NCBI GenBank assembly: GCA_030596405.1
Contig: JAUVKB010000002.1
Location: 1-32,983, forward strand
Source: Deltaproteobacteria bacterium
GTDB lineage: Bacteria; Desulfobacterota; Desulfobacteria; Desulfobacterales; JAUVKB01
Reading direction: 5' to 3'
DNA length: 32,983 bases
Part shown: positions 17,381 through 32,915 of the stretch, one piece after another
How positions within the stretch are numbered: the stretch's first letter is position 1
Layout of the letters: each line of letters starts with the position of its first letter
Position numbers and translations under genes: made by a program
The notes under the pieces: model-generated
The model's database searches: none
What the model was told of the DNA's origin: nothing
What the model saw: the letters and a program-made list of their open reading frames with translations, nothing else

Positions 17381-18208
17381 ATGGAAGCACAGCTATTTCA
17401 TATTTTCAGAAACACGCCTTTGGGGAGGGAAACGCTGTTTCAATCCACGTATTTTTGCAGTAAGACCGGCGCTGCTATAAATATCTATGTTCCCGAATTC
17501 ACTAAATTTTTGATGTACTTTGAAAATGACGTCATTCAGATCAATCTTGACGAATCGTATCTTACGGCCCCTGGCAGCGCTCTTGAGCATGCAACCGAAG
17601 TAGTTATGCAAAAAAATATAAAACCAAAATTTATCAAGCCCAAGCATTTTACGGCCTCGACTCTTCCCGACATACCGACCGGCTTTGATTTTATGTGCTG
17701 TCCCCGCAGCATAAGCGATCTGTCTTCAAAGATAGGCATAGGATACATCGGTCCGCGAGTTAGACGTATTGTAAAATCCGCTCGGTTTCCGGTTTTGATA
17801 ACCAGCCCTGTTTATAAAGAATGGAGCAGTATAACTGTATTTTTCGGGGGATCAGCCAATGCGGTCAATGCGCTTAAGCTGGGCTTTCGTATCAAAAGGG
17901 CAACTAAAATGCCGCTTTATATTTTCACACAGGCGGAAAAAGGACACAAAAAGACTTGTAAAGATGTTATAAAACATGAAAACCTTGAAAAAGAGATGGA
18001 ACAACTTGCAGACAGGTGGCAAATATTTGAAAAGGGGAAATTTGAAGAAAATCTTTACAAAGTGCCCCATGATTCACTTGTCGTTTTAGGCGCATACGGC
18101 CACGGTTTTATAAAAGATATTGTTTTTGGAAGCAAAATGGAAAAGATCCAGTCTACTGTTTCCAACAACCTTTTAATTGTAGGACCGAATTACACGGCAA
18201 CCGTGTAG
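17381..18208 (+). CDS. Tandem universal-stress-protein (UspA)-like protein
   Basis: Two halves each end in a Usp-like motif (IGYIGPRVRRIVKSARFPVLI and VVLGAYGHGFIKDIVFGSKMEKIQSTVSNNLLIV). It sits 11 nt downstream of the ClC gene. The family call is tentative. Confidence 0.5.
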   Translation: MEAQLFHIFRNTPLGRETLFQSTYFCSKTGAAINIYVPEFTKFLMYFENDVIQINLDESYLTAPGSALEHATEVVMQKNIKPKFIKPKHFTASTLPDIPTGFDFMCCPRSISDLSSKIGIGYIGPRVRRIVKSARFPVLITSPVYKEWSSITVFFGGSANAVNALKLGFRIKRATKMPLYIFTQAEKGHKKTCKDVIKHENLEKEMEQLADRWQIFEKGKFEENLYKVPHDSLVVLGAYGHGFIKDIVFGSKMEKIQSTVSNNLLIVGPNYTATV

Positions 18209-21224: not shown

Positions 21225-22075
21225 CAACAGCAATCGATGTAACAAATCTGAGCTATTCTTACGGGGCTTCCAAAGTTTTGAAGGATATCTCCTTTTCTGT
21301 TCAAAAAGGCGATTTTTTTATCATAATAGGTCCCAATGGTTCAGGGAAAACAACACTGATGAAGGTTATTGCCGGAATAGCAAAACCTGAAAACGGCCGG
21401 CTGAACGTCATGGGGCTCCCTCTTATGAACTATGCCCGGAAAACCCTGGCAAGAACCGTCTCTTTTGTCCCCCAGATGATCCCGATCGAATTTCCTTTTA
21501 CCGTAACGGAAATGGTCATGATGGGACGTGCGCCTCATATGGGTTTGCTTGGACTGGAACAGGAAAAAGATCTTGATATCACACACCGGTCTATAGATTT
21601 TACCGGCATAAAACATCTGGCAGACCGCAAACTAAATCAGCTTAGCGGTGGAGAACGGCAAAGAGTCTTTATCGCCAGGGCTATCTGCCAGGAACCACAG
21701 ATCATACTTCTTGATGAACCCACGGCTTCTCTGGATCTTGCCCATCAGGTCCGCGTAATGGATTTGATGGAAAAATTAAAGGAGGAAAAGGGGATAACCA
21801 TTATTATGGTCTCCCATGACGTAAATCTTGCCGCTATGTACGGCAATAGTCTGCTCATGCTCAAGGCAGGGCAAATCGTAAGCATGGGGCAGGTTAATGA
21901 GGTTCTCACGTTCAAAACGCTGGAAAATGCTTATGGCTGCCCATTGTTGATTGACGAAAACCCGCTTGGAAAGTTTCCCCGCATCACGCTTGTACCGCAA
22001 AAATTTATGAGTCCGGATATACGCGCCGGAAAATCGGGGAATAAAAAAAGTATATCAAGAACAATATCAAAATAA
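21221..22075 (+). CDS. ABC transporter ATP-binding protein (BtuD/FepC-like)
   Basis: The true start is ATG 21221, overlapping the permease stop (ATGA): MTTAIDVTNLSYSY... Walker A GPNGSGKTT, signature LSGGERQR, Walker B ILLDEPTASLD. The track ORF from 20990 is an out-of-context N-terminal extension. Confidence 0.9.
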   Translation: MTTAIDVTNLSYSYGASKVLKDISFSVQKGDFFIIIGPNGSGKTTLMKVIAGIAKPENGRLNVMGLPLMNYARKTLARTVSFVPQMIPIEFPFTVTEMVMMGRAPHMGLLGLEQEKDLDITHRSIDFTGIKHLADRKLNQLSGGERQRVFIARAICQEPQIILLDEPTASLDLAHQVRVMDLMEKLKEEKGITIIMVSHDVNLAAMYGNSLLMLKAGQIVSMGQVNEVLTFKTLENAYGCPLLIDENPLGKFPRITLVPQKFMSPDIRAGKSGNKKSISRTISK

Positions 22076-23194
22076 TTCGAGATCTTCCATCTTTTTTTCA
22101 TCACCAATAAAGGGTCTTAATCCTATTTTTAGCATATCATATCCCGTTACCGTACGGATATCCGTTCCAACGCCTGTTGTTACAGTCACATCAACAGGAC
22201 CTGTCAGAGGATTTCGGTTAAGCATCACTATGGCGATAATAACATCTGCGCCCAGCCTGATCTTGCCTACAAACCATATATTATCATCGCCAAGGCTAAA
22301 AGAGACTCTGGAGCTGGGAGTAAAAAAGGTGTCTTTTCCTGTGATAGATATGGCGTGACGGGTCGGTATCCATCTGCTCCCGAGTATTGCTCTGGGAGAA
22401 ATCGCGTTGATAATACCCTCATTTGCAATAGAACCTGAATTGACCGTTATTTCGGCTGTATCGCTGACGCTGTTTGCGGTATCGGTTACCCTTATAATAT
22501 CGGTTGCCTGATAACCTGTGGTGTTTGTCCCTGCGGTGTACAGTCCGTTTGCTGTTATTACACTCCCTATGCCGGTTGTTTCCATTTCAAAGCTGTAAAC
22601 CGGACTCTGGCCGCAATCCCCGGCGCTTGAAGCACTAAAATTAATGCTTTCTCCTGAATCGGCCGAGGTTTCTTTAGGGCTGACAGTTACCTTGCACGAT
22701 GTAAAACTGAACTCTCCGTCAACGGCGGTTGTCTCAAGTGTATAATTGTCTTCATCAACAAGCGTTACGTTTTCCAGTTTCAAACTTCTGGTTTCGGAAA
22801 GGGGAGCGTCTTCTTTTACATCAAAGGCAACGATAAGCACCGGCCCGCTCCCCTTTGCAATCAGGCTTAGAGACATGGAAAAAGCAAGCATTCTGGCGCA
22901 CCCGTTTTCAAGTTCGCTATAATCGCAGGAAAAACCCTCGGTGCGGGAAGTGTTTCTAACGCCTGTCACGACAAGATAATCATCCGTGTCGCAGATATCC
23001 AGCTGCAGTGCCATTACAGCGTCATCAGGATTATCAAGACTTATTATCACCTCATTCCCGGAAGAACCGGCAGCGCCGGCGCCGGCTTCGATGGCAAGTG
23101 TCACCTGAGACTGCGCTTTGGGACAGGTTGTTAAAATAATAGAAAAAATTATGCTTGCCAGAACAAATATTTTAGTAGCTGATACATTTTTCAT
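22067..23194 (-). CDS. Secreted (possibly lipid-anchored) protein: divergent cohesin-like module + Ig-like (Big_2-like) domain + IPT/TIG-like C-terminal domain
   Basis: The N-terminus MKNVSATKIFVLASIIFSIILTTCPKAQ has a signal peptide and a borderline lipobox, LTTC. The cohesin-like segment is VTLAIEAGAG...VMALQLDICD...GCARMLAFS...GSGPVLIVAFDV. The C-terminal domain ends VDVTVTTGVG, as in the 280-aa paralog. Confidence 0.7.
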   Translation of the reverse strand: MKNVSATKIFVLASIIFSIILTTCPKAQSQVTLAIEAGAGAAGSSGNEVIISLDNPDDAVMALQLDICDTDDYLVVTGVRNTSRTEGFSCDYSELENGCARMLAFSMSLSLIAKGSGPVLIVAFDVKEDAPLSETRSLKLENVTLVDEDNYTLETTAVDGEFSFTSCKVTVSPKETSADSGESINFSASSAGDCGQSPVYSFEMETTGIGSVITANGLYTAGTNTTGYQATDIIRVTDTANSVSDTAEITVNSGSIANEGIINAISPRAILGSRWIPTRHAISITGKDTFFTPSSRVSFSLGDDNIWFVGKIRLGADVIIAIVMLNRNPLTGPVDVTVTTGVGTDIRTVTGYDMLKIGLRPFIGDEKKMEDLELF

Positions 23195-23212
23195 TTTACA
23201 AAACCCTTTGTT

Positions 23213-23264
23213 TTTTAAAAATGAAAAGCAAGCGGACTAGAGGTTGAATTTCATCCGCTTGCTT
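23213..23264 (-). terminator. Terminator-like hairpin between the 154-aa cohesin gene and the 375-aa gene
   Basis: Arms AAGCAAGCGGA (23226-23236) and TCCGCTTGCTT (23254-23264) around a 17-nt loop. On the minus strand the hairpin is followed by TTTTCATTTTTAAAAAA. Confidence 0.45.
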
Positions 23265-23343
23265 GTTTATGGAATACATCTCATCTTAAAACCGTGTTCT
23301 TAAAAGCAGTGCGCGGCTTTAAGGGAAGGGTCTTTAAGAAATT

Positions 23344-23808
23344 TTACAGGCTTGTTCCCTTAACTGTTACATTGACCGGCTTATTGTTGATATCGGCCAC
23401 ATTTACATCCGTCAGGGTCAAATCAGCCTTTTTTGCCCGAACTCCCGGCGCAGTCTTGTAGGCAATCTTTAATATCGGCCCGATGCCCGGGGATATGGCT
23501 TTTCCGTCAAGGGAGACTAAAATCACCTTTACCCCTTTGTCGCCCAAATCATTAAACTGGGCAAGAAACCCCTTGGAGCGGACGGTCGTCATCAACCTTT
23601 GTGCGGTTGCAATATCAGGCATATCTTTTAATATGAACTCGACTCCCAGAACCGGAACATCATTTTTCATCTTGACGGCAACCTTGTCTCCAAGATTTAC
23701 CAGTTTTAAAGTCGCAACACCTGCGGTGGCGGAAAATGCAAATACAATCGTCATGGCAAAAACCAGCGCCGTTGCCGCGATATATTTTATGTGTCTTGTA
23801 CTTTTCAT
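23344..23808 (-). CDS. Small secreted single-module cohesin-like protein (divergent class)
   Basis: The preferred start is ATG 23808 (MKSTRHIKY...), because AAGGAG sits 8 nt upstream. The track start at 23826 would place that RBS inside the ORF. Signal peptide ...FAFSATAG, then one beta-sandwich-like module with VPVLGVEFIL...GVKVILVSL...GIGPILKIAYK. Confidence 0.7.
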   Translation of the reverse strand: MKSTRHIKYIAATALVFAMTIVFAFSATAGVATLKLVNLGDKVAVKMKNDVPVLGVEFILKDMPDIATAQRLMTTVRSKGFLAQFNDLGDKGVKVILVSLDGKAISPGIGPILKIAYKTAPGVRAKKADLTLTDVNVADINNKPVNVTVKGTSL

Positions 23809-23851
23809 GTCATAAACTCCTTTCATCTATATCCTGAAAATATTTTTAATT

Positions 23852-25363
23852 TTAATAATGATTAAGACAATTGTCGCGCCCGAGAATTTCCTGCACAATT
23901 GCCATAACATCGGAAATGTTTATTTCTGCATCAGGTGCAGCGCAGCCGCCGGCCTGGGTTCCGGTGGGGACATCGCCGGCCGTAAACTCACAGTCATTAG
24001 GCGTATAATCTGCCAAAATAATTTGAATGTCACGCACTACATCAAAGATGTTTATCAGGCCGTCTCCCACGGTTAAACCATCTATCGACAGTGGGTAGAC
24101 ATCTCCGAACAAACCGAGAAAAAATATGCCCGGATCTTCTCCGGCAGTCAAAGGAAGGTCGTCCGGATCGGTAATAAGCAGATTGCCGGAACTAAGTCCT
24201 ACGCATGACTGTGTTGCGGCTGCATCAACATCATAGTTAAGGGTAAAAATAGGCCCGTCGCCGGCAGCAATAACAGCTCCGGATTGAGCAAATAATATAA
24301 TCCTTGCACAACCGGCCACAGGATAGTCATCCTGCAAATCGACCGTATAGCCTGCTGTCCGGTCTGTCAGTGTAACCAAAGGCAGACTCAGCACATCCTG
24401 GCCATTGGTGATATCCACCTGAATACCGCCGACCGCAACCTCATTTGTAAGACAGACTTCTACTTTTTTACCCGTATCTCCGGGCATACCGGCTCCGTTT
24501 TTAATATCAAAGAGTAATCCAGCACATGACCGAACATCCTGATCACAATTATTAGCTTCATTGCTTTCTTCAATCATGCCGCCAAAGTCCGCGCATACTA
24601 TAATGGTATCCATTGCATCTGAACAGGTGATATCTGCAAAAGTCTGTATGTGGGAAGCGCCCGGATCAAGCGCAGGGCATCCTTGAGTTGCTGCAGGCGT
24701 TCCGTCAATGGTAAGAGATGTTATACTTGCAGGTGCCAGGACATCTCCATTATTTGTTACCGTGCAGACTACACTGTAAGTAGGGTCGGTAGTTTCTTCA
24801 TGCATCTCGCTTATAACAAGATCCGGCGCGGGAGGCGGTCCTGATCCGGTTATTACAACATCACCGCTGGTTACAGTTGACGGCACTTCAGTGCCGGTCA
24901 AGTCGCCCACTATGACATCCGACAGGTCAAGTGGACTGGTGCCCGAGGCTTCGGCCGTGAAGGTAAGGGTAGCAAAGATTCCTTGACCTGAAACCTCACA
25001 CCCTGCTCCGAGTACAACCCCTGCAAGGCCATCGATAAATCCCTGGTCCTGATAAAGTCCGCCCATGATTGAAACAAAAGTGCCGCATCCGGGAGGATCC
25101 TGGCTAAGCAGGTCACCCTCTGTCCAGCCGTCAAATTCCAGAAGATCCGGATTCCAGTTAATGTCAAACTGGACACCTGCAATCGGTGTATCCGGCGTGA
25201 CAACGATATCAACGGTAAAGGTATCTCCCGGATCCACGGTCTGGGTGGAAGGCGTGAGCACCATCGTTGTAGCAGCCGGCGCCGACGATACAAAAAACAT
25301 ACTCAGCAAAGATACGGCAAAAACCGTGAGTATAATTTTTGAAAGACTTCTTGTTTTTTTCAT
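23852..25363 (-). CDS. Scaffoldin-like secreted protein: cohesin (class 1) - CARDB - cohesin-like (class 2) - divergent dockerin-like C-terminus
   Basis: Signal peptide. Cohesin 1: DPGDTFTVDIVVTPDTPIAGVQFDINWNPDLLEF...GIFATLTFTAEASGTSPLDLSDVIVGD. CARDB: PDLVISEM...VCTVTNNGDV...LDPGASH...IEESNEANN. Cohesin 2: GKKVEVCLTNEVAVGGIQVDI...GCARIILFA...GDGPIFTLNYDV. The C-terminus has two segments, GDGLINIFDVVRDIQIIL and PDAEINISDVMAIVQEIL. Start ATG 25363 is favoured over 25369 by AGGAGA spacing and by alignment with the paralog. Confidence 0.8.
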   Translation of the reverse strand: MKKTRSLSKIILTVFAVSLLSMFFVSSAPAATTMVLTPSTQTVDPGDTFTVDIVVTPDTPIAGVQFDINWNPDLLEFDGWTEGDLLSQDPPGCGTFVSIMGGLYQDQGFIDGLAGVVLGAGCEVSGQGIFATLTFTAEASGTSPLDLSDVIVGDLTGTEVPSTVTSGDVVITGSGPPPAPDLVISEMHEETTDPTYSVVCTVTNNGDVLAPASITSLTIDGTPAATQGCPALDPGASHIQTFADITCSDAMDTIIVCADFGGMIEESNEANNCDQDVRSCAGLLFDIKNGAGMPGDTGKKVEVCLTNEVAVGGIQVDITNGQDVLSLPLVTLTDRTAGYTVDLQDDYPVAGCARIILFAQSGAVIAAGDGPIFTLNYDVDAAATQSCVGLSSGNLLITDPDDLPLTAGEDPGIFFLGLFGDVYPLSIDGLTVGDGLINIFDVVRDIQIILADYTPNDCEFTAGDVPTGTQAGGCAAPDAEINISDVMAIVQEILGRDNCLNHY

Positions 25364-25380
25364 TTTCATTTTCTCCTAAT
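24846..25380. repeat. Copy 1 of a ~535-bp direct repeat (RBS + signal peptide + class-1 cohesin module)
   Basis: Hand alignment with 26778-27312 gives no indels and about 37 mismatches (roughly 93% identity). Similarity stops abruptly at the module boundary (VVITG|). Confidence 0.85.
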
Positions 25381-25477
25381 GTTGAATTTTTTCCTGGGGA
25401 ATTTAATCTCACCCAGTATAGTTTTTAAACAGCTTGTCCAGGCCAATAAGAAAGAGAAGATAATTAGATTCTAATTT

Positions 25478-27295
25478 TTATTGCCCTGCCAAAATAAAAC
25501 TTCCATCCTGTAATACATACACAGTCCCGCCGGATACAGACACTTCATAGATTGGCCGGAATCTGGACTGATTATACCCTTTGTCCCAGATCAATCGGAT
25601 TTTCCAGTCTTCAATCGGTTCAACCGGTTCAACGGGTAACGGTTTAATCTCTCCATGTTTAATCTCGATTGCCTTTTTTGCAAAACCCAAAGCATTTTGA
25701 GCAATTTTCAGCGCCTCTTCTTCAGCCAGATATTTTTGGTCTTCCAGACTCCAAGATGCCTGGCGGAATGTCCCGGTTTCACCTTTCACCATCAGTGCCA
25801 CGGAAGCGGTATTTTCTACCTTTGACTGACTGAAAAGTATCAGGTCATAGTCCTCCCCGGACTCCAGATCAATCACGTTCATGGCTCCACTGAGTCTGCT
25901 CTGGGAATAGATATTTATAAAATCAGGAGAAGTATAAAGCTCAACTGGGATAACCTTATCCCAGTTTACCTCTTTGAACACTTCTTCAATCTCTTTTGGT
26001 TCAATATCTATTTTGGACTTGGAAACTCTGGACATGGCAACAAAACCAGAAGAAACATCCAGATCTTTTTTTGCATCCAGAGCGCTTGCAAGTTCTTGAT
26101 CCGGCTTGCTTTCCACGTAGGTGATATTAATGGAATCCAGCGCGGCATCCAGTTCATCCATGTCAACATCCTGAGGCGGTTCTGCCACATAGCACCAACT
26201 ACCTTCAGTGGCTTGATATATATTCCTGAACTCGTCACCGGTCTGGTAAACGTTATATCCCATTCCCGTTGCCTTTGGATCATTAAGCCATGCCCCATAA
26301 AACTCTAAATCAGACGGCATTTGCCAGTCAACCCACGGGTCCTTGTTGCTTACAAAACCCCGCACCGTTTTCCAGTTATTGCTATAGGAACCGTCGGTGG
26401 GCACATGGGCCGGGGCGTTGGTCTCAGCCACATCCGGCACTTCATAGTCTATCCAGTATATCATCCGCTTGATGGCATGATCCTGGTCAGAATCCGAAAA
26501 ACCGATAAAATTATATCTTGCGGTATCAGGATTCTGGTTGGTCTGATCAGTCAGCATCCAGGCCAAATCACTTTCGTTCATGTCCTCTCCTGGAGTGCCG
26601 GTATGATATGTATTGTACAAATCAACCTGACCCGGCCAACTATAAGAGTCGTCAAAGAACCTCAGGGCTTGCAGACCAGAGGCTGCACCGGTGCAATAAA
26701 GTTCTTGCGCCTGTTCCTGTGGGAAATAGTCATTACCTTGATCATCGATCCCCAGATGATTTATGTAAATCGATGTGCCGGTTATTACAACATCACCGCT
26801 GGTTACAGTTGACGGCACTTCAGTGCCGGTCAAGTCGCCTACTATGACATCAGAAAGAACAAGAGGACTGATGCCCGCGGCTTCGGCCGTAAAGGTAAGG
26901 GTTACATATATTCCGGGGCCTGAAACCTCACACCCTGATCCGAGTACAACCCCTGCAAGGCCATCGATAAATCCCTGTTCCTGATAAAGTCCGCCCATGA
27001 TTGCAACAAAGGTGCCGCATCCGGGAGGATCCTGATTAAGCAGGTCACCCTCTGTCCAGCCGTCAAATTCCAGAAGATCGGGATTCCAGTTAATGTCAAA
27101 CTGGACACCTGCAATCGCTCTATCCGGCGTGACAACGATATCGACGGTAAAGGTATCTCCCGGATCCACGGTCTGGGTGGAAGGCGTGAGCACCATCGTT
27201 GTAGCAGCCGGCGCCGGCGATACAAAAGGCATACTCAGCAAAAACACTGCAAAAACTGCGAGTATGATTTTTGAAAAACTTCTTGTTTTTTTCAT
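25478..27295 (-). CDS. Secreted protein: class-1 cohesin fused to a ~430-aa uncharacterised region (possible clan-CA peptidase-like core and PepSY-like tail)
   Basis: The N-terminal 172 aa are near-identical to the 503/505-aa scaffoldin-like protein. After VVITG the sequence becomes unrelated: ...QEQAQELYCTGAASGLQALRFF...APAHVPTDGSYSNNWKTVRGF..., ending ...ALKIAQNALGFAKKAIE...IYEVSVSGGTVYVLQDGSFI. Confidence 0.75.
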   Translation of the reverse strand: MKKTRSFSKIILAVFAVFLLSMPFVSPAPAATTMVLTPSTQTVDPGDTFTVDIVVTPDRAIAGVQFDINWNPDLLEFDGWTEGDLLNQDPPGCGTFVAIMGGLYQEQGFIDGLAGVVLGSGCEVSGPGIYVTLTFTAEAAGISPLVLSDVIVGDLTGTEVPSTVTSGDVVITGTSIYINHLGIDDQGNDYFPQEQAQELYCTGAASGLQALRFFDDSYSWPGQVDLYNTYHTGTPGEDMNESDLAWMLTDQTNQNPDTARYNFIGFSDSDQDHAIKRMIYWIDYEVPDVAETNAPAHVPTDGSYSNNWKTVRGFVSNKDPWVDWQMPSDLEFYGAWLNDPKATGMGYNVYQTGDEFRNIYQATEGSWCYVAEPPQDVDMDELDAALDSINITYVESKPDQELASALDAKKDLDVSSGFVAMSRVSKSKIDIEPKEIEEVFKEVNWDKVIPVELYTSPDFINIYSQSRLSGAMNVIDLESGEDYDLILFSQSKVENTASVALMVKGETGTFRQASWSLEDQKYLAEEEALKIAQNALGFAKKAIEIKHGEIKPLPVEPVEPIEDWKIRLIWDKGYNQSRFRPIYEVSVSGGTVYVLQDGSFILAGQ

Positions 27296-27312
27296 TTTAA
27301 TTTTCTCCTAAT
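26778..27312. repeat. Copy 2 of the ~535-bp direct repeat (RBS + signal peptide + class-1 cohesin module)
   Basis: See copy 1. Same orientation, with copy starts 1932 bp apart. The repeat includes the TTTTCTCCTAAT (AGGAGA RBS) upstream segment. Confidence 0.85.
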
Positions 27313-27396
27313 ATTTTTTTTGTTAAACTTGCAATTTTAAATAAATAAACCCGAATCTGTAATCACCTCCCTTTTTTGTTTTTAAAATTGTATTTT

Positions 27397-28803
27397 CTAT
27401 TCTCCCCAGTGCTGGCCGATCAAGACCATATCGAGCACATTTACACTGCCGTCCTGATTAATATCTTCTCTGATCCAGCCGGGGCTGCCGGTTTCTCCCC
27501 AGTGCTGGCCGATCAAGACCATGTCGAGTACATTTATATTGCCGTCCTGGTTGACATCCCAGTCAGGATAAGCAGGACCAAACGCGTAAACCTTGCCGTC
27601 TGCTCCGTGCGGGGTAAAAACCCTGCCGTTTGCAACCGCAGGCGATGATCCGCCTGCATCATAATGCCAGACTTCAGCGCCGGTATAGGCATCCAGGGCA
27701 TAAATCCCTGAATAGCAAAAATAAGTAACAGGATCAGGTTTTCCCACAAAGACCTTGCCGTCGGCCACCGCCACAGAGCATGTCCAGTTGCCGACTCCGA
27801 AGGCTGTGGAAGTTTCCCAGACCAGGGTTCCGCCGGTCGTAAAGCAGTATGTCTGTGAATAAGAATACCCTGTGCACCCGCCGCAGACATAAACATTCCC
27901 ATATGCCACAGCAGGAGTGGAATCGGTCCTTTGCACTATTTTTACCCAGTTTGTCGATCCGTCTGAAGCATCAAGTGAATAGAGTTCTCCGTCCCCGGAA
28001 AAGTTATAGGTAGTGACATAAACCGAACCGTCTGCCACAGCGGCCGAACCGCAGGCATCAAGATTGGTAGTTACATGCCATACAAGATTGCCCGAAACCG
28101 CGTCCACGCAATAGACATGCCCGCCCACATAAAGCCAGCTTGTAAGATATAAATAGCCGTTTTCATACGCTGCGGTGCCCTGGGCATATCCTGACACGTT
28201 AAACGTCCAAAGAAGGGCGCCGGTATCTTCATTAAGACAGTAGTAATGCCCTCCGTCCCAGTCGCTGCAAAAGACCTTGCCGTCGGCGACAGTGGGGCCT
28301 CCGTTGCACGAGGCATTGCCCGAGGGGTTGGTAAATGTCCATATCTGGGCTCCATCTGAAGCATTAAGACACCTGGTCTCAGGCCCTGATGAAACAAAAA
28401 CCTTGCCGTTGTGATAGGCTGGTGATGACCAGGAACCCCATTCTGATGGAAGAAGTGTTGTTGTCCAGATTGTGGCGCCGGTCAACTCGTTAAGACAGGA
28501 GAGAGCAGAATCCCCGCCATACATATCCGACGGCGCGGAAAAGGCAAAAACCTTGCCGTCCGCCACAACCACGGATGATGAACCGTTGACGCCGATATCT
28601 GCGCTTTCCCATAAAAACTCCGCGGTGTCGGGCGCGCTGGATGCGGAATAGCCGACATTTGTTGCATCGCCGTGAAATTGTTCCCAGCTTGTGCCGTCAG
28701 CCAAACTTGCAAACGCGCAAACAGGAACAAGCGCCGCAGCCGTCCAAAGAATCGTGGCGGCAAATAACATTTTTGAAATAATTTTCGATTTAAAAATTTT
28801 CAT
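27397..28803 (-). CDS. Secreted PQQ-like (BamB-like) beta-propeller protein with C-terminal duplicated dockerin
   Basis: Signal peptide ...VCAFASLA. Repeated propeller blades of the type DGKVF..S.D...YCLN..TGA..WT. The C-terminus is DVNQDGNINVLDMVLIGQHWGE-TGSPGWIRE-DINQDGSVNVLDMVLIGQHWGE (two F-hand Ca-binding repeats). Confidence 0.85.
   Translation of the reverse strand: MKIFKSKIISKMLFAATILWTAAALVPVCAFASLADGTSWEQFHGDATNVGYSASSAPDTAEFLWESADIGVNGSSSVVVADGKVFAFSAPSDMYGGDSALSCLNELTGATIWTTTLLPSEWGSWSSPAYHNGKVFVSSGPETRCLNASDGAQIWTFTNPSGNASCNGGPTVADGKVFCSDWDGGHYYCLNEDTGALLWTFNVSGYAQGTAAYENGYLYLTSWLYVGGHVYCVDAVSGNLVWHVTTNLDACGSAAVADGSVYVTTYNFSGDGELYSLDASDGSTNWVKIVQRTDSTPAVAYGNVYVCGGCTGYSYSQTYCFTTGGTLVWETSTAFGVGNWTCSVAVADGKVFVGKPDPVTYFCYSGIYALDAYTGAEVWHYDAGGSSPAVANGRVFTPHGADGKVYAFGPAYPDWDVNQDGNINVLDMVLIGQHWGETGSPGWIREDINQDGSVNVLDMVLIGQHWGE
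27400..27564 (-). repeat. Dockerin-encoding segment with a 93-bp internal duplication
   Basis: TTCTCCCCAGTGCTGGCCGATCAAGACCAT occurs at 27400 and again at 27493 (period 93 bp = 31 aa). In frame, it encodes both F-hand repeats. Confidence 0.85.
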
Positions 28804-28847
28804 TTTGTTTTTTTCTCCTTATCTTTTCAGTTAAACCTGATTAAAAC

Positions 28848-29690
28848 CTAACCGGCGGGAACTACAGAAAAAACATCTTCTCCGATAATTACATCTCCCT
28901 TGCCGGTTGTAACCGTTACATCATAAATACCTTCGGAGATACCTGCCTTCCTGATCAGGACAAAAATCTTTAAGGTTTCATTATTTACCGGTGTTACAGA
29001 CAAGACCCGGACAGCCGGGCTTCCAAATGAGACCCCGTTTCTTGCCACACCGTCATCCTTAAAACCGGTATTTTCACCGGTAATTACAAGACGACGGACA
29101 ACACCGCGTGAAATTCCCACTTCCACGACCGACGGTTCTACAGATTTAAAAACCGGCTGTGGAACCCCGCCTGTTACCGTTATAAAACCGTCTGCTGTTT
29201 CCGACGGCACTTCAGTGCCGGTCAAGTCGCCCACTATAACGTCGGTAAGGGCAAGGGAACTTGTGCCGGAAGCTTTGGCGTGAAAACTCACCGTGGCAAA
29301 TATTCCCGGCCCTGAAACCTCACACCCTGCTCCGAGCACGACACCTGCAACACCGTCGACAAATCCATCATCAGGGTAAACGCCGCCCATGACCGCAAAG
29401 TAGGTGCCGCATCCCGGGGGATACTGGCTGAGCAGATCTCCTTCAGTGACTCCCGTGTACTCCAGAACAGCAATGTCCCAGGTTATGTCAAACTGGAGAC
29501 CCGCAATCGCGGTGCCGGGTACGACATAGACATCCACGGTAAAATCATCGCCGGGATCTACCGTTAGAGCAGAAGGATGAACTTCTACTGTCGTCGCCAC
29601 TGTTGCCGCTGCCGTTACCGGCAGTAGCAACATCGGCATAAGTAATAGAAAAAGCATAAAAACGATGGTTGAAAATCTTGTTTTAGCCAT
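28848..29690 (-). CDS. Secreted class-1 cohesin protein with IPT/TIG-like C-terminal domain
   Basis: Signal peptide. Cohesin: DPGDDFTVDVYVVPGTAIAGLQFDITWDIAVLEY...GIFATVSFHAKASGTSSLALTDVIVGDLTGTEVPS. The C-terminal domain has LVITGENTGF...VSFG...YDVTVTTGKG. Confidence 0.8.
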   Translation of the reverse strand: MAKTRFSTIVFMLFLLLMPMLLLPVTAAATVATTVEVHPSALTVDPGDDFTVDVYVVPGTAIAGLQFDITWDIAVLEYTGVTEGDLLSQYPPGCGTYFAVMGGVYPDDGFVDGVAGVVLGAGCEVSGPGIFATVSFHAKASGTSSLALTDVIVGDLTGTEVPSETADGFITVTGGVPQPVFKSVEPSVVEVGISRGVVRRLVITGENTGFKDDGVARNGVSFGSPAVRVLSVTPVNNETLKIFVLIRKAGISEGIYDVTVTTGKGDVIIGEDVFSVVPAG

Positions 29691-29751
29691 TTATGTTACC
29701 TCCTTTGTTAAAATGTTTTTGGTTTAAACCTGAAAAGTTAAACCTGAAATA

Positions 29752-31398
29752 TTAAGAACCCCAGTGCTGAGCTATCAGTATCAGGTCGTTTAAGTTTACT
29801 ACCCCATCGTCATTAACGTCTTCCCTGATCCAGCCGGGGGTTCCGGTTTCGTCGAAATGCTGAGCCACTAAAAGCAGATCAAGCATATCCGTGCCGCCGT
29901 CAAAATTTACATCCCAGGCAAAGGCACAGTAGAATTCCGGCGCGGGGTACTGGTGGATACTGGTTCTGGTATCGATTTCGGCATAGGGCCAGAAGTGTCC
30001 AGCATCATTCCATGTAAAAGTCAGTTCGCCATATCCATCCGTGTAATCGACAAGTGTTCCTGGCGCAGGTTCCCATCCGCCCCATGTATCACTTACAAAA
30101 ACACCCGCATTTTCAACCGGAGATACTGTGCCGTATCCGTCTGTCCAGGTTACCGTTGCAGTGATATCATCTCCGGGGAGTATTTCGGTTTTATCAACAG
30201 ACAAAAGCATCTGGTAATATCCGAGCAGATAGTTAAACCAGTGCACGCTGTCGCCGTCTCCCACGGGCTGGGCATCCGCGCCAACCATGGGCACACTTTC
30301 GTTGTAAGCATACATCCACATATTCTCATTGGCCGGATCAACCCCGATCTGGACAACATAAGCTCCCCAGGATTCTGTTATTAAAATCTCTATGCCGTAT
30401 TCCTGGCAGTAACAGATCAGAACGCCCATTGCCGTCTGCTTGTCCACGGTAATCCCGTCTTCGGTTACATCCCCTTCGGAAACGCTGTAGCCGGCGACAT
30501 CAATAATGTCTGCAGAATCACCGCCGGTAGCCCGCAGATCAACAGAGATCGGCTGAGGCGGTGTGCCTACTTCGATAACACGGTGACAATCAGCAATCAA
30601 AGTATTGCCATTTGACAATCTTTCAGCATCCAGAGGCCCATTTAGCCCTGTATTATATTCCCAGACTATATTCCTGTCGGGATCTACCTCAATAACGCGA
30701 TTATTATAATGATCGCTAATCAAAGTATTGCCATTTGGCAATCTTTCGGCATCTATCGGGCCACTAAGTCCCATGTTGTAAGACCAGTCTATTTCACCTG
30801 CAGGGGTTATTTCAGTAATCATGTTCCAGCAATTGTTAGTAATCAAGGTGTTGCCGCTTGCTAATCGCTCGGAATCGATGGGACAGCCCTTATCGTTCAT
30901 ATCATATTCCCAGACTATATTGCCGGCAGGATCTACCTCAATTAAACCAAGGTCAAAGAGGTTGGTAATTAAAGTATTGCCGTTGGATAACCGTTCGACA
31001 TCATAAACATAGTAAAGACCGGCGCTGTATTCCCAGACTATATTGCCGACAGGGTTTACCTCAATGACACGGTTATTTTCGGCATCGGCAATCAGGGTAT
31101 TGCCGTCGGGCAATCTTTCGGCATCAACCGGGAGGTTAAGCCCTGTGTTGTACTCCCAGACTATGTTGCCTAAAGGGTCTACCTCGATAACACGATTATT
31201 GATGGAATCGCTAATCAAAGTATTACCATTTGTCAAACGGTCGGCTGCAGATGGATAGTCAAGTCCGGTGCTGTATTCCCAGACGATTTCATCAGCAGCC
31301 AGCACCGGTGTTACCAGCATCGCTACCCCTGATACCAGAAAGGCGCAGACTATGAGCACCGTGAATAAAATTCTTTGAATACCTTTTGTTTTAAACAT
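29752..31398 (-). CDS. Secreted six-bladed beta-propeller (ASST/NHL-like repeats) + transcobalamin-like DUF4430 domain + Ig-like domain + dockerin
   Basis: Six repeats of about 41-42 aa of the form IVWEY.TGL..P.DAERL.NGNTLI.D..NNRVIEVDP.GN. Then ...DGITVDKQTAMGVLICYCQEYGIEILITESWGAYVVQIG...WMYAYNESVPMVGADAQPVGDGDSVHWFNY (DUF4430-like). The C-terminus is DVNFDGGTDMLDLLLVAQHFDETGTPGWIREDVNDDGVVNLNDLILIAQHWGS. Confidence 0.8.
   Translation of the reverse strand: MFKTKGIQRILFTVLIVCAFLVSGVAMLVTPVLAADEIVWEYSTGLDYPSAADRLTNGNTLISDSINNRVIEVDPLGNIVWEYNTGLNLPVDAERLPDGNTLIADAENNRVIEVNPVGNIVWEYSAGLYYVYDVERLSNGNTLITNLFDLGLIEVDPAGNIVWEYDMNDKGCPIDSERLASGNTLITNNCWNMITEITPAGEIDWSYNMGLSGPIDAERLPNGNTLISDHYNNRVIEVDPDRNIVWEYNTGLNGPLDAERLSNGNTLIADCHRVIEVGTPPQPISVDLRATGGDSADIIDVAGYSVSEGDVTEDGITVDKQTAMGVLICYCQEYGIEILITESWGAYVVQIGVDPANENMWMYAYNESVPMVGADAQPVGDGDSVHWFNYLLGYYQMLLSVDKTEILPGDDITATVTWTDGYGTVSPVENAGVFVSDTWGGWEPAPGTLVDYTDGYGELTFTWNDAGHFWPYAEIDTRTSIHQYPAPEFYCAFAWDVNFDGGTDMLDLLLVAQHFDETGTPGWIREDVNDDGVVNLNDLILIAQHWGS
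29755..29919 (-). repeat. Dockerin-encoding segment with 93-bp internal periodicity
   Basis: TGCTGAGC occurs at 29765 and 29858 (93 bp apart). It shares the 14-mer TGATCCAGCCGGGG (encoding PGWI) with the other two dockerins. Confidence 0.8.
30565..31287 (-). repeat. Six tandem ~123-126 bp coding repeats (beta-propeller blades)
   Basis: IVWEY / IDWSY recur at residues 38, 79, 120, 161, 203 and 244 of the 548-aa protein. DNA-level similarity is visible, for example ATTGCCATTTGNCAATCTTTC recurs near 30604 and 30727. Confidence 0.8.
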
Positions 31399-31466
31399 TT
31401 TTAACCTCCTTTAAATTATAATTTTGAATTTTAGCTTAACAAATAAGGCGCCCTCAGTTTTCTTCA

Positions 31467-32915
31467 TCAAAAACTGAAATGCTGGCCCACTAAAATAATA
31501 TCGAGCATATCGATGCTGCCGTCGTCATTAACATCCTCCCTGATCCAGCCGGGGGCCCCGGTTTCTGAAAAATGCTGGCCCACTAAAATAATGTCGAGCA
31601 TGTTGACCGAGCCGTCTTCATTCACATCCCAATCCTCATAGAAATCACTTGAAAGGGCATAAAGACGGCCTCCGGCATTGCCGAAATATATCCGGTCGTT
31701 ATAGATAGCCATTCCTTGCAGTGTGTAGCCCCCGGAAGTGCCGGCTTCATCGCTGGTGAAATGCCACATCTCGGTACCGTCCTCATCGAGACAATAGGCT
31801 GTTCCGTCAGTACAATTGGAAGTGAAGTAAATATAAACCTGTTCTCCTTGAACACTTAATGCCGGCGAGGACTGGACACCGCCGTTGGGAATAAATGCCC
31901 AGATTTCTTCGCCGGCGGCTTCGGTTAAGCAGCAAAGTCCGCCCTGGGAGGAGAAGCCTCCCTTCCCGACATAAACTCTGTCATCATAAATTACCGGACT
32001 GGATGTGCTGTAACCGATTTGGACGTGCCACTGGTATGTCAAAGTGCCGGTAGCGGAGTTAAAATTGTAGGCCCAGCAGTTACCTCCCTTGCAGGTAAAA
32101 TAGACACGTCCGGCAGACTCGCTGTATGTGACTGAAGATCGGATTTCCCCGGCGCCTGAATCTACATCCTTCAGATTTTCTTCATCAACAAGCAGTCCGG
32201 TATCCTTATTGACACAGGTCAGGATTGAAGCATCATCGCCGTAGATCAGGTAATCACCTATGGCGCAGGCGCCGGCCCAGTAGTAGCCTCGTCCACTGGT
32301 GGAAGGCCGGTTCCATACAACATGACCGTCAGTGACGTCCAGGCAGTAGTATATTTTTCCATTCCAGCTCCCGATATAAATCTTGCCGTCTGCATACTTT
32401 ACCGGGGTGTTCAACTGGTCATAGGCGCTTGCTGTTTCATTTGCCCAGATTTGTGATCCGTTTGCGGCGTCAAGCGCGTATACGTGCCCGTCGTTGGTGG
32501 CGGCAAAAATCTTCCCCGCGGCATATGCCGGAGTGGAAAGTTGAAATAACATTCCTGTGCAACTTAAATCGGTCTGCCATATCTTATCGCCTGTTTCTGC
32601 GTCGAAGCCCCACATTTCCCCGAGGGCATCGAGAACAAAAATTTTTTCTTCGGCAATTATTGATGATGTGTCGATTCCGGCCATTCCGGTACTGCCGACC
32701 TGCTGTTTCCAGGAGACAGTCGCATCGGAAACAGGGGCTGTGTCACAGGTGATGCCCGAGTTTATTGCATCTTTTTGAAATTGTGCCCACCCGGAAAAAG
32801 ATTCTGTACCAACTCCTTCAGGAGTCGGCATCGCGGTTGAAACAGATGAAAAAAGCAAGAAAATTACGGCATAAAAGAAAATAATTTTTCTGCTTATTTT
32901 TAAATATTTTTCCAT
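31467..32915 (-). CDS. Secreted PQQ-like beta-propeller protein with C-terminal duplicated dockerin; first gene of the cluster
   Basis: Signal peptide. Blades of the type GKIF.A..DGHVYALDA.NG..IW. The C-terminus is DVNEDGSVNMLDIILVGQHFSETGAPGWIREDVNDDGSIDMLDIILVGQHFSF. Confidence 0.85.
   Translation of the reverse strand: MEKYLKISRKIIFFYAVIFLLFSSVSTAMPTPEGVGTESFSGWAQFQKDAINSGITCDTAPVSDATVSWKQQVGSTGMAGIDTSSIIAEEKIFVLDALGEMWGFDAETGDKIWQTDLSCTGMLFQLSTPAYAAGKIFAATNDGHVYALDAANGSQIWANETASAYDQLNTPVKYADGKIYIGSWNGKIYYCLDVTDGHVVWNRPSTSGRGYYWAGACAIGDYLIYGDDASILTCVNKDTGLLVDEENLKDVDSGAGEIRSSVTYSESAGRVYFTCKGGNCWAYNFNSATGTLTYQWHVQIGYSTSSPVIYDDRVYVGKGGFSSQGGLCCLTEAAGEEIWAFIPNGGVQSSPALSVQGEQVYIYFTSNCTDGTAYCLDEDGTEMWHFTSDEAGTSGGYTLQGMAIYNDRIYFGNAGGRLYALSSDFYEDWDVNEDGSVNMLDIILVGQHFSETGAPGWIREDVNDDGSIDMLDIILVGQHFSF
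31470..31634 (-). repeat. Dockerin-encoding segment with a 93-bp internal duplication
   Basis: ATGCTGGCCCACTAAAATAAT occurs at 31479 and 31572 (93 bp apart). In frame, it encodes both F-hand repeats. Confidence 0.85.

Follow-up and report, generated by a model that had tools for sequence, protein, structure and literature searches.

A cohesin-dockerin gene cluster with beta-propeller cargo in a Desulfobacterales bacterium, proposed as a two-tier, non-cellulolytic assembly

Introduction

Cohesin/dockerin systems outside the cellulosome are already on record. In the sulfate-reducing bacteria (SRB) that are partners of ANME archaea, proteins with cohesin/dockerin and CARDB domains are conserved, highly expressed putative adhesins, which were reported absent from free-living SRB and apparently exchanged between clades (Murali 2023, PMC10553843). 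ANME archaea also contain many cohesin/dockerin proteins (Chadwick et al. 2022, PMC9012536). The locus described here is therefore not the first of its kind, since clusters of cohesin/dockerin and CARDB genes are catalogued as putative adhesins of syntrophic SRB (PMC10553843). It lies in a window of 32,983 nt (contig JAUVKB010000002.1, positions 1 to 32,983) from an uncultured Desulfobacterales bacterium of sulfate-reducer type, and its cellulosome-type modules appear to hold beta-propeller binding proteins, not plant-degrading enzymes.

Layout of the cluster and its host

Eight minus-strand genes, running from g8 to g1, span 22067-32915, and their ORFs were recovered where they had first been annotated (the module classes A and B are set out below):

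g8, 31467-32915, minus strand, 482 aa: signal peptide, 8-blade-type PQQ_2/BamB-like beta-propeller, class-A duplicated dockerin (430-479)
g7, 29752-31398, minus strand, 548 aa: signal peptide, NHL/ASST-like six-blade propeller (about 35-283), DUF4430 (322-387), beta-rich region (about 390-490), class-A dockerin (495-547)
g6, 28848-29690, minus strand, 280 aa: signal peptide, class-A cohesin (41-172), C-terminal Ig-like domain of about 100 aa
g5, 27397-28803, minus strand, 468 aa: signal peptide, PQQ_2 beta-propeller, class-A duplicated dockerin (416-462)
g4, 25478-27295, minus strand, 605 aa: signal peptide, class-A cohesin (38-171), two-lobed 430-aa domain g4C (175-605)
g3, 23852-25369, minus strand, 505 aa, or 503 aa from M3: signal peptide, class-A cohesin (40-173), CARDB (181-275), class-B cohesin (about 285-415), Cys-containing dockerin-like tail docB (about 420-505)
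g2, 23344-23826, minus strand, 160 aa, or 154 aa from the M7 start at 23808: signal peptide, single class-B cohesin
g1, 22067-23194, minus strand, 375 aa: signal peptide, class-B cohesin (about 30-165), Big/PKD-like domain (about 165-255), C-terminal Ig-like domain

The gaps between these ORFs are 25-149 bp. The earlier figures for g2 (154 aa together with a 25-bp gap) were inconsistent with each other, and with the M7 start the gap becomes 43 bp. A Shine-Dalgarno site had been ascribed to every gene; it is strong, AGGAG(G), before g3-g7 and the M7 start of g2 but weak before g1 and g8. All the proteins (8/8) begin with an n-region rich in K/R and then a hydrophobic h-region, in agreement with the signal peptides called before, and none of them (0 of 8) contains a further TM segment, both by heuristic scans. 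The first gene of the operon is probably g8, and the contig ends 68 nt upstream of it, in which a terminator-like T-run and a promoter-like site can be seen by eye. The last gene is g1, whose stop overlaps a convergent ABC ATPase gene by 9 nt.

The flanking genes (Mfd, SurA, RodZ, RecO and GlyQS) are bacterial and diderm in character, and the best matches of GlyS are Desulfobacterales MAGs with 65% identity. Because SurA and RodZ are encoded, the host is taken as diderm, and the earlier idea of a Gram-negative anaerobe is supported. Seven syntenic Desulfobacterales relatives lack the cluster in their 10-kb downstream flank, which marks it as an accessory trait.

Cohesins, dockerins and propellers

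The first-pass annotation counted six cohesin modules in five proteins, and this count stands on Pfam, profile and fold matches together. It turned out that Pfam Cohesin is above threshold in g3 (E 1.9e-14), g4 (4.1e-9) and g6 (5.1e-10), sub-threshold in g1 (E 0.004) and without a match in g2 or the middle of g3. A 13-sequence profile of g1, g2, the middle of g3 and their homologs (profile A2) matches the solved cohesin 2xdh (E 4e-5), and the g3 tail, as modelled by AF2, resembles CARDB folds and numerous cohesin structures, the latter with a probability of 1.0.

These cohesins form two classes, A (g3 N-terminus, g4 and g6) and B (g1, g2 and g3-middle). By BLAST, the identity is 65-90% among the members of class A, in which the g4 cohesin is a duplicate of the g3 N-terminus (90%) and the g6 cohesin is 65-67% identical to both, and 24-35% among those of class B; hhalign finds only weak similarity between the classes. 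The class-A profile matches the scaffoldin cohesins 5lxv and 5n5p at E about 1e-6, while class B is closest to the non-cellulosomal 2xdh. The earlier calls of cohesins and dockerins were right, but they had not brought out the division into two classes, the part of g3 as an adaptor or the g3-g2-g1 module.

Three propeller proteins had been said to end in canonical duplicated dockerins, and Pfam Dockerin_1 confirms this in g5 (E 6.6e-9), g7 (8.5e-7) and g8 (3.7e-9). Besides, their joint profile matches 23 solved sequences (best 7e-12), nearly all of them dockerin-bearing cellulosomal proteins. The dockerins contain duplicated DxNxDGxxNxxD loops, of which the first loop of g7 is slightly degenerate; they are 62-65% identical and have an LDxxL(I/V)(G/A)QH(W/F) helix in common.

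As to the propellers, Pfam PQQ_2 matches g5 (E 9.6e-35) and its paralog g8 (E 1.6e-33; 30% identity between the two). The best PDB matches of g8 are designer propellers, 3hxj and BamB, and its homologs (n=722) have ANME-1, Methanosarcinales, Peptococcaceae and Ca. Desulfofervidus among their hosts. In g7, DUF4430 scores 29.6 bits against a Pfam cut-off of 23.8, Arylsulfotran_2 covers 34 residues only, and the PDB matches are the PknD NHL sensor domain and Pizza propellers; the gene has internal repeats of 123 nt. No characterised relative of the propellers was found by the PDB sequence search.

The C-terminus of g6 is weakly similar to that of g1 (E 0.012). The g4C domain has 269 representative homologs, which conserve W/Y/D/E/R but no Cys or His, and its AF2 model reaches a pLDDT of 87. 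For g1-g8, Pfam gives no match to GH, CBM or SLH domains at E<=0.01, so the earlier claim that CAZyme, CBM and SLH domains are lacking holds, with the caveat that some g4C homologs carry other modules upstream: a GH clan-A TIM barrel in 3/10 of those tested and CBM4_9 in 1/10.

The g3-g2-g1 module and related loci

The genes g3, g2 and g1 are a conserved three-gene module. Three related loci (L038, L122 and L123) each encode one or more tail proteins of the form X-CARDB-cohB-docB, a g2-like protein and a g1-like protein, where X is an unknown domain, CBM96 with a metallophosphatase, or a beta-helix with PKD. The g2 orthologs (46-48%) come directly after the tail gene in L038 and L123, and in L122 there is a tail gene on either side; the g1 orthologs are 56-57% identical, and the g1 family comprises only 16 clusters, all metagenomic (16/16). 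Within the window, g2 matches g1 at 2e-7 and g3-middle at 1e-5 (BLAST), and g1 is 35% identical to g3-middle. The CARDB domain of g3 has a Pfam E of 2.2e-14, and the g3 tail is 51-58% identical to tails attached to other N-terminal domains. Because the tail protein elsewhere carries enzymes in place of the class-A cohesin, g3 would be an adaptor that joins two systems. As a second, C-terminal dockerin of g3, docB is no more than a candidate: its AF2 model has a pLDDT below 50, it matches no PDB sequence, its match to Pfam Dockerin_1 is weak (best E 0.009), and hhalign gives 6% probability over 12 columns.

The cargo set (a g8-type propeller, a g5-type propeller and a DUF4430 protein) is found again in further metagenomic loci and among homologs from ANME-1/alkane-oxidising archaea and Firmicutes; there, its parts frequently form fusions with one another or bear SLH in place of the dockerin. 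The three genes are adjacent in L035, L036/L037 and L041, with g5-type orthologs (52-58%) adjoining g8-type orthologs in L035, L036 and L041, and the g7 ortholog in L035 has 548 aa with 56% identity. Among the loci seeded with g8, 23 of 80 also contain a g5-type propeller, which is fused in a single ORF in 12 of these 23. Other fusions are cohA-DUF4430, DUF4430-cohA-docA and prop5-cohA-docA, and prop8-DUF4430 and prop8-SLH occur in ANME-1 and Peptococcaceae. The ratio of three cohesins to three dockerins pointed out before is true of this cluster but is not conserved, as in L035 a single cohesin protein stands against six dockerin proteins.

Proposed assembly and its alternatives

We infer the binding partners, localisation and biological role as follows. 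It seems fairly probable that the eight genes specify a non-cellulolytic cohesin-dockerin assembly in two tiers, in which a set of propellers is scaffolded for ligand binding, adhesion or matrix organisation; the broad proposal of the first-pass annotation, a defined assembly of several proteins that is not cellulolytic, is supported. In the first tier, the three Sec-exported propeller proteins (g8, g5 and g7), with near-identical, internally symmetric Ca-loop dockerins, would plug into the class-A cohesins of g6, g4 and g3, probably interchangeably, as the helix motif common to all three dockerins makes promiscuous binding likelier than 1:1 pairing. In the second tier, the CARDB, class-B cohesin and docB tail of g3 would belong with g2 and g1 as the class-B module, and through this tail the propeller set could be tied into a larger scaffold, which displays enzymes in other organisms. 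The second linkage is proposed from synteny alone, docB being only a candidate dockerin. The conserved aromatic/acidic 430-aa g4C may serve as a glycan- or matrix-binding or anchoring arm. Because they are syntenic or covalently fused elsewhere, the two propellers and the DUF4430 protein would act as a single functional unit outside the cytoplasmic membrane, and, rather than being catalytic, they would most likely bind ligands, mediate adhesion or organise the matrix in anaerobic and syntrophic consortia of the sediment.

The place of the complex was also considered. The first-pass annotation had put it at the surface or outside the cell, which is not demonstrated in a diderm host, as g1-g8 have only Sec-type signals, and a lipobox, TM anchor, SLH domain or known OM-export signal is lacking in all of them. 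A periplasmic complex is conceivable, with BamB-like propellers as envelope-biogenesis or scaffold factors, and the propellers do match BamB models (NCBIfam) and BamB structures (about 1e-14), while a SurA-like PPIase adjoins the g4C genes in L039 and L040. We regard this reading as unlikely: the scores are far under the BamB equivalog cut-offs (104 vs 285 bits), the lipobox is lacking, T2SS/pseudopilin genes near the class-B triad in L038 offer a possible export route, and the same propeller family bears SLH anchors in archaea and monoderm Firmicutes and is therefore outside the cell there. A polysaccharide- or EPS-processing, cellulosome-like machine, with g4C and possibly the propellers as unrecognised glycan-active or -binding modules on biofilm matrix polysaccharide, seems rather improbable. 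The GH or CBM4_9 modules preceding g4C in homologs, its conserved Trp/Tyr and Asp/Glu/Arg, the CBM96 and beta-helix (NosD/pectate-lyase-like) cargo of class-B tails elsewhere and a weak match of g8 to the lambda-carrageenase propeller family PF25292 speak for it, but GH, PL, CE and CBM Pfam domains are found in 0/8 proteins, the propellers are nearest to non-enzymatic BamB-type and designer propellers, and g4C resembles no solved CAZyme, since a search with its model yields no PDB fold at E<1e-3.

It is quite unlikely, in our estimate, that the assembly scavenges a corrinoid or metal chelate for a BtuFCD-type ABC importer, with DUF4430 as the binding element. DUF4430, above threshold in g7, is the family of the C-terminal domain of transcobalamin in vertebrate B12 carriers (PMC4350170), and ABC substrate-binding proteins are common dockerin cargo in ANME (PMC9012536). 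Besides, a Peripla_BP_2/FecCD/ABC importer immediately adjoins g1, a Peripla_BP_2 gene neighbours the class-B triad in L038 too, and some seep SRB are cobalamin auxotrophs. However, the importer and the cluster converge instead of sharing an orientation, and none adjoins the loci L035, L036, L041, L122 and L123. There is no cobalamin riboswitch, even at Rfam E<=1, and no TonB-dependent receptor in the window; the DUF4430 profile matches none of the solved B12 binders, and BtuH is not a DUF4430 protein.

Comparison with known systems

In Clostridium perfringens, whose cohesin-like module 2jh2 is among the fold matches of the g3 tail model, non-cellulosomal cohesin-dockerin pairing joins secreted proteins of toxin/glycosidase complexes, as is proposed for this cluster; there, the joined proteins belong to GH families and the organism is a monoderm pathogen, and neither propeller cargo nor a conserved triad module is known from them. 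The clostridial and ruminococcal cellulosomes (for example R. flavefaciens ScaA/ScaB/ScaC) also have clustered genes, duplicated Ca-loop dockerins that enter cohesins and an adaptor combining cohesin(s) of one specificity with a module of another, and the class-A profile matches the ScaC cohesin 5lxv. In contrast, the cluster described here lacks GH, PL, CE and CBM cargo as well as anchoring by SLH or sortase, its scaffoldins have only one or two cohesins, its cargo consists of propellers of unknown function, and its host is diderm.

Among archaeal non-cellulosomal proteins, the Archaeoglobus fulgidus cohesin 2xdh is closest to the class-B cohesins and comes from a non-cellulolytic context, and members of the propeller cargo family are numerous in ANME-1, Methanosarcinales and alkane-oxidising archaea. 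The host of the window is bacterial and diderm, however, and the ANME cargo reported as typical is ABC substrate-binding proteins (PMC9012536), not propellers.

The clusters of ANME-partner SRB (HotSeep-1 AMM40420-AMM40427; Seep-SRB1g; Seep-SRB2 PXF58214-PXF58216) share with this one a Thermodesulfobacteriota/Desulfobacterales-type sulfate-reducer host, clustered cohesin, dockerin and CARDB genes (in HotSeep-1 a run of eight consecutive accessions; also a three-gene CARDB set), an accessory, patchy distribution without CAZymes, and signs of transfer between clades and domains; besides, a Ca. Desulfofervidus protein is 45% identical to g8. They are described by domain keywords only, and the likeness is drawn from those descriptions; they belong to syntrophic clades, of which the window's lineage is not a demonstrated member. 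Those descriptions mention neither the two classes of cohesin nor an adaptor like g3 nor propeller/DUF4430 cargo.

Genomic context and organization of the cluster

The genes flanking the cluster encode Mfd, SurA, RodZ, MgtE, RecO, a GHMP kinase, GlyQ, GlyS, an HTH-EIIA protein, a ClC channel, a phosphorylase-family protein and a Peripla_BP_2/FecCD/ABC importer, and the window also contains two tRNAs:

1618-1693, minus strand, tRNA-Asn(GTT)
2701-2776, minus strand, tRNA-Thr(CGT)
19309-22075, plus strand, BtuFCD/FecBCD-type ABC importer (Peripla_BP_2, FecCD, ABC ATPase), convergent with the cluster
22067-32915, minus strand, the eight cluster genes, from g8 (31467-32915) to g1 (22067-23194)

The best matches of GlyS come from Desulfobacterales/Thermodesulfobacteriota MAGs (52-65% identity), and the mfd-glyS block is syntenic in all of these GlyS-matched MAGs (7/7). 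We searched the eight cluster proteins by tblastn against the 10-kb downstream flanks of the seven syntenic MAGs, and it turned out that there were no matches. Taken together, these results indicate that the host is an uncultured diderm lineage of Desulfobacterales and that the cluster is accessory.

Several flanking details deserve mention. The tRNA-Asn and tRNA-Thr genes bracket a metallo-beta-lactamase-fold gene upstream of mfd. Between glyS and the ClC channel gene, a 229-aa protein (14944-15633, plus strand) combines an HTH_17 DNA-binding domain with PTS EIIA-2, while a 275-aa ORF between the ClC channel and phosphorylase-family genes (17381-18208, plus strand) has no Pfam match at E<=1e-5. 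The importer ATPase, listed as a 361-aa ORF (20990-22075), is over-extended, and its true start is probably near 21227, right after the end of FecCD.

The eight minus-strand ORFs have exactly the coordinates assigned by the first-pass annotation. Each protein starts with a signal peptide, as had been claimed, with a K/R-rich n-region and a hydrophobic h-region by a heuristic criterion, and a heuristic scan found no further transmembrane segment or C-terminal anchor in g1-g8. Neighboring genes are separated by 25-149 bp, and each of g3-g7 is preceded by an AGGAG(G) ribosome-binding site. Since g2 has an AAGGAG 8 nt 5' of its second Met and the ribosome-binding site of g3 is better spaced for its third codon, the lengths originally proposed for these two proteins (154 and 503 aa) are supported. 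The window makes up its entire contig, as homolog tables place its own proteins on one of 32,983 bp. Only 68 nt precede g8 before the contig ends; by eye, they contain a promoter-like TTGTCA...TATTCT after a T-run, which suggests that g8 is probably the first gene of the cluster. A promoter/terminator scan gave no promoter-like matches other than generic ones, and it found no intrinsic terminators between the cluster genes, as would fit their co-transcription. The opposite border is an overlap of 9 nt between the g1 stop and the convergent ABC ATPase gene. An exact-sequence look-up of g6 in public assemblies returned no record.

Two classes of cohesins

Six cohesin modules in five proteins had been counted at first sight, and this count is correct according to Pfam, profile matches to solved cohesins and a model of the g3 tail. 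All-against-all BLAST divides the modules in two, class A (the N-terminus of g3, g4 and g6) and class B (g1, g2 and the middle of g3). Pfam PF00963 recognizes the class-A modules of g3, g4 and g6 with 54.5, 37.2 and 40.1 bits respectively (gathering cut-off 24.1), and the class-A profile matches the R. flavefaciens ScaC cohesin 5lxv_A at 8.7e-7 and the putative cellulosomal scaffoldin protein 5n5p_A at 1.1e-6.

For class B, the g1 cohesin stays below the Pfam threshold (17.7 bits), and Pfam Cohesin has no match in g2 or the g3 middle. A 13-sequence class-B profile matches 2xdh at 4e-5 over nearly its full length; this structure was deposited as "COHESIN" and is named a non-cellulosomal Archaeoglobus fulgidus cohesin in the fold search. 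The AF2 model of g3 residues 176-505 has a mean pLDDT of 62 (60-88 in the beta-sandwich parts, about 60-78 in the g3 middle). It matches CARDB structures with a TM of 0.8 and a long list of cohesins with probability 1.0, and the g3 middle itself matches 6kgf_A, 2xdh, 5nrm and 1aoh (probability 1.0, TM about 0.5-0.6). By homology, g1 and g2 are predicted to adopt the cohesin fold as well.

The class-B modules share 24-35% identity with one another. In class A, g3 and g4 carry copies with 90% identity over 174 aa and, in DNA, 93% over 300 nt, which marks a recent tandem duplication of the cohesin-coding 5' parts of the two genes, and the g6 module is 65-67% identical to both (71% in DNA):

24846-25145, cohesin DNA of g3, 93% identical to the g4 copy
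26778-27077, cohesin DNA of g4
29170-29469, the corresponding g6 copy

Such duplicated DNA in g3 and g4 could serve as a recombination site or cause mis-assembly of a metagenomic contig.

Canonical dockerins and the tail of g3

A type I dockerin consists of two tandem F-hand segments of approximately 22 residues with DxNxDGxxNxxD Ca loops. Dockerin_1 (PF00404) is found in g5, g7 and g8 with 36.3, 29.5 and 37.1 bits (cut-off 22.9). These dockerins have two Ca loops each (loop 1 of g7 has Thr at position 8), are 62-65% identical and internally symmetric, and have a common LDxxL(I/V)(G/A)QH(W/F) helix. Their profile matches 23 solved sequences (best 7e-12), nearly all of which are dockerin-bearing cellulosomal proteins. 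Because the dockerins are alike and the class-A cohesins are alike, the sequences argue for interchangeable rather than one-to-one pairing within class A.

The end of g3, a Cys-containing stretch of roughly 90 aa that we call docB, is strongly conserved among homologs and carries the F-hand-like motifs GDGxINIFDV and PDxxINISDV. Its Dockerin_1 E-value is 0.089 in g3 and at best 0.009 among 9 homologs, hhalign against canonical dockerins gives 6% probability over 12 aligned columns, its sequence has no match in PDB, and its AF2 pLDDT is <50. Both loops, as read from sequence, are without Ca ligands at positions 1 and 3, and docB can be called dockerin-like only. A role as C-terminal sorting signal is unlikely, since docB is internal in a 1276-aa protein of the metagenomic locus L122.

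Propellers and DUF4430 in the cargo proteins

By Pfam, g5 and g8 consist of PQQ_2 propellers and Dockerin_1, while g7 combines an NHL/ASST-like repeat propeller, DUF4430 and Dockerin_1. NCBIfam gave only sub-threshold BamB and PQQ-enzyme similarities for the cluster proteins. BamB (TIGR03300 / NF008351) was rejected for g8 and g5 (103.8 and 66.4 vs 285.2 bits; no lipobox), and so was PQQ-dependent alcohol dehydrogenase (TIGR03075) for g8 (65.6 vs 480 bits); the PQQ_2 propellers have about 380 aa, compared with about 550-600 aa in such dehydrogenases. For g7, ASST PF05935 reaches 21.8 bits, below the cut-off of 24.2, PF14269 reaches 38.5 bits only when summed over repeats (the best stretch has just 34 residues), and among solved sequences the PknD NHL sensor domain comes closest. 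The ASST resemblance of g7, judged from these scores, appears to be generic six-blade repeat similarity. Its propeller is encoded by a repeat array:

30589-31248, minus strand, tandem 123-nt (41-aa) repeats of g7 with 65-76% identity, encoding NHL-type propeller blades (NGNTLI...NNRVIEV...GNIVWEY)

Residues 322-387 of g7 match DUF4430 (PF14478) with 29.6 bits (gathering score 23.8), and this region is 44-62% identical in seven syntenic homologs and 27% identical in one distant member.

A candidate new domain in g4

The remaining part of g4 is a two-lobed domain, g4C:

25481-26773, minus strand, g4C (g4 residues 175-605)

It has no match in Pfam, NCBIfam or PDB sequences. Exhaustive HMMER searching yielded 269 representative homologs, in which the domain is mostly placed close to the C-terminus of large proteins with many domains, the longest of 4,789 aa. 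The AF2 model is good (pLDDT 87, pTM 0.86), and the fold search with it gave no PDB match at E<1e-3, with weak similarities to UfSP2 (papain-like) and to a fungalysin propeptide. A C39-like Cys peptidase, suggested by "YCTGAAS", was rejected, for the Cys is unique to g4, the family has Tyr at this position and no Cys or His is conserved. The conserved residues are Trp, Tyr, Asp, Glu and Arg. We consider g4C a candidate new domain family; it would serve in glycan or matrix binding or in anchoring, and may be a new enzyme.

The cluster had been described as having no GH, CBM or SLH domain, and Pfam indeed finds none in the eight proteins at E<=0.01. Among 10 g4C homologs scanned, 3 have a GH clan-A TIM barrel upstream of the domain and one has CBM4_9, associations that qualify the statement on CAZymes and do not overturn it. 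In locus L090 the g4C gene adjoins a g8-type propeller gene. The closest g4C homolog (54% identity) is found in L039/L040 (JGI 3300021493 / 3300021509), where a NusG-family gene and an HTH_17 gene lie 5' of it, and a second g4C paralog (833 aa, 25% identity) and then a SurA-like PPIase lie 3'.

Recurrence of two modules with g3 as their probable adaptor

Homologs of g3 match its C-terminal two-thirds alone (CARDB, class-B cohesin and docB), ahead of which they carry other N-terminal domains, such as PKD, beta-helix/NosD, CBM96 with metallophosphatase, or another cohesin. In three independent metagenomic loci (L038, L122 and L123), these tail proteins are contiguous with g2-like (46-48% identity) and g1-like (56-57%) proteins, and the order tail, g2-like, g1-like in L038 and L123 is that of the window. 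The g1 family comprises 16 clusters, all metagenomic, and none of them (0/16) has a Pfam domain. Two of these loci contain further features:

L122 (ENA ERZ27237542 k141_120275), 3157-12053, three consecutive large proteins combining CBM96, metallophosphatase and CARDB domains
L038, 7378-12796, type IV pilin/T2SS pseudopilin-like genes (N_methyl, T2SSG, PilO) and a Y1 transposase, just 3' of the class-B triad (the g3-, g2- and g1-type genes)

In L122, class-B cohesin with docB is present in two of the three large proteins, once internally, and the class-B system appears to display phosphatases. In L038, a Peripla_BP_2 gene adjoins the class-B triad.

The cargo proteins recur in other loci. A metagenome scan seeded on g8 gave 80 loci, which were analyzed with local HMMs of each module. 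A g5-type propeller occurs in 23 of them, 12 of which encode a one-ORF fusion with the g8-type propeller; a canonical dockerin occurs in 6 of 80, 4 of which also have a class-A cohesin; and class-B modules occur in none (0/80). Locus L035 encodes in a row g5-like, g8-like, g5-like plus dockerin, DUF4430 plus dockerin, a 548-aa g7 ortholog and a cohesin protein, and g5-like, g8-like and DUF4430 proteins are consecutive in L036/L037 and L041. Fusions of class-A cohesin with DUF4430, of DUF4430 with cohesin and dockerin, and of the g5-type propeller with cohesin and dockerin were seen, and in the Pfam strings of homologs the g8-type propeller is fused with DUF4430 (ANME-1 and Alkanophagales) or with SLH (Peptococcaceae and Desulfotomaculum). 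By Rosetta-stone logic, this adjacency and these fusions suggest that the DUF4430 protein belongs with the two propellers in a single unit, both physical and functional, whose attachment varies by organism among dockerin, SLH and direct fusion.

As for individual loci, one or two g5-type propellers accompany the g8-type propeller within an ORF in L065-L072, L076, L079, L080, L098 and L101. The cohesin-DUF4430 fusions are encoded by L036, L037 and L041, and the propeller-cohesin-dockerin protein of L051 could in principle self-polymerize. The balance of three cohesins to three dockerins, to which the first-pass annotation had drawn attention, is true of the window (three class-A cohesins, three canonical dockerins) and is not conserved, with dockerin to cohesin proteins standing at 6:1 in L035.

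Since g3 is the sole protein of the window with both a class-A cohesin and a class-B tail, its domain content identifies it as the probable adaptor between the two modules.

Proposed assembly and alternative explanations

The locus is real and well-formed, and most likely it encodes a multivalent binding or adhesion complex. In this model, three Sec-exported propeller proteins would dock by their Ca-loop dockerins onto the class-A cohesins of g6, g4 and g3, g3 would link the docked propellers to the class-B scaffold (g2, g1), and g4 would add a binding or anchoring domain. The data establish which modules are present, their two classes, the synteny and the fusions; binding partners, location and role are inferred. 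As for localization, the host is diderm and nothing in g1-g8 explains passage across the outer membrane; the T2SS/pseudopilin genes beside the class-B triad of L038 may offer diderm hosts a way of export or attachment. A lipoprotein anchor in g1 ("ILTTC") was rejected, as a Thr occupies position -1 and the L038 ortholog retains not the Cys but the AxS|QVTL signal-peptidase I site of g1. We regard a purely periplasmic complex as quite unlikely.

What the complex might do instead can be weighed on the same evidence. The domain associations of g4C speak for a cellulosome-like system that processes EPS, which we consider unlikely. Capture of corrinoids or metals is suggested by DUF4430, the family of the transcobalamin C-terminal domain (PMC4350170), and by the BtuFCD-type importer next to the cluster; however, this adjacency is not conserved, the DUF4430 profile matches no solved B12 binder and has no match in PDB at all, and the window contains no cobalamin riboswitch or other cis-regulatory RNA even at E<=1, and we consider this function quite unlikely. 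BtuH, considered as a DUF4430 B12 binder, was set aside, as its paper speaks of a domain without known homologs.

The adhesion complex may also be part of a broader picture, speculative and rather doubtful as a whole. In it, sediment Thermodesulfobacteriota would possess in the class-B triad a self-contained and as yet undescribed system for display or polymerization, made up of diverse cargo that bears CARDB, an archaeal-type cohesin and an F-hand-like tail with Cys, and of two free cohesin proteins. Here the triad would have captured a canonical cohesin to mount a cargo unit shared between domains (two propellers and the DUF4430 protein). Consortia that oxidize methane or alkanes anaerobically would have in this unit a conserved device outside the cell, for partner attachment or for capture of a cofactor (e.g. 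corrinoid) between archaea and bacteria.

Cohesin/dockerin proteins have repeatedly been flagged, as keyword hits only, as candidates for what makes syntrophic sulfate reducers and methane- or alkane-oxidizing archaea cohere and recognize each other. The locus offers a testable wiring diagram, with three cargo proteins of proposed interchangeable dockerins, three class-A cohesins, one adaptor and the class-B triad, and a cargo unit common to domains whose anchor is swapped among dockerin, SLH and direct fusion. Experimentalists gain defined recombinant pairs and a candidate extracellular module to localize in consortia. Besides, three uncharacterized families can be curated, namely the docB tail, the g1 and g2 proteins and the g4C domain. 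The locus is useful as a concrete model, amenable to testing, of how syntrophic microbes of sediments assemble structures outside the cell.

Comparison with known systems

Non-cellulosomal cohesin and dockerin modules are well known in the three domains, as the relevant passage of PMC9012536 states with reference to Peer et al. 2009, and ANME archaea have many cohesin/dockerin proteins, including scaffoldin-like ones (PMC9012536). Murali et al. 2023 treated cohesin/dockerin "complexes" and CARDB proteins as putative adhesins, which are conserved in HotSeep-1, Seep-SRB1g and some Seep-SRB2, are reported absent from non-syntrophic SRB, were apparently exchanged between clades and are highly expressed in consortia (PMC10553843). 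Their lists contain eight consecutive HotSeep-1 accessions and a three-gene CARDB set in Seep-SRB2, and the SRB cluster accessions are AMM40420-27, OEU53285/7 and PXF58214-16 (PMC10553843). The original interpretation of the locus as a non-cellulosomal cohesin/dockerin assembly is right in outline; its novelty was overstated, the kind being already known, and a surface location had been presumed in it. New here are the two cohesin classes with the g3 adaptor, the class-B triad with its unclassified tail, the cross-domain propeller/DUF4430 cargo unit and the g4C domain without known family.

Compared by description only, the SRB clusters of Murali et al. are defined at keyword level, without propeller/DUF4430 cargo or a two-class architecture; the supplements, which give accession numbers only, contain no propeller or DUF4430 annotations (PMC10553843). 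The sole link to them, an indirect one, is the Ca. Desulfofervidus protein P0086, which is 45% identical to g8.

The cellulosome differs in cargo, scaffold and anchoring. Its cargo is CAZymes, whereas the cargo here is PQQ_2/NHL propellers and DUF4430, with no GH/PL/CE Pfam match at E<=0.01. Its scaffoldin has a CBM and multiple cohesins, whereas there is no CBM here and at most two cohesins per protein (g3), which belong to different classes. It is anchored by SLH or sortase, whereas the present proteins, from a diderm host, have no SLH and no C-terminal TM or LPXTG-type anchor. In conclusion, the defining features of the cellulosome are absent, and the likeness would lie in the assembly principle, the predicted pairing of cohesins with dockerins.
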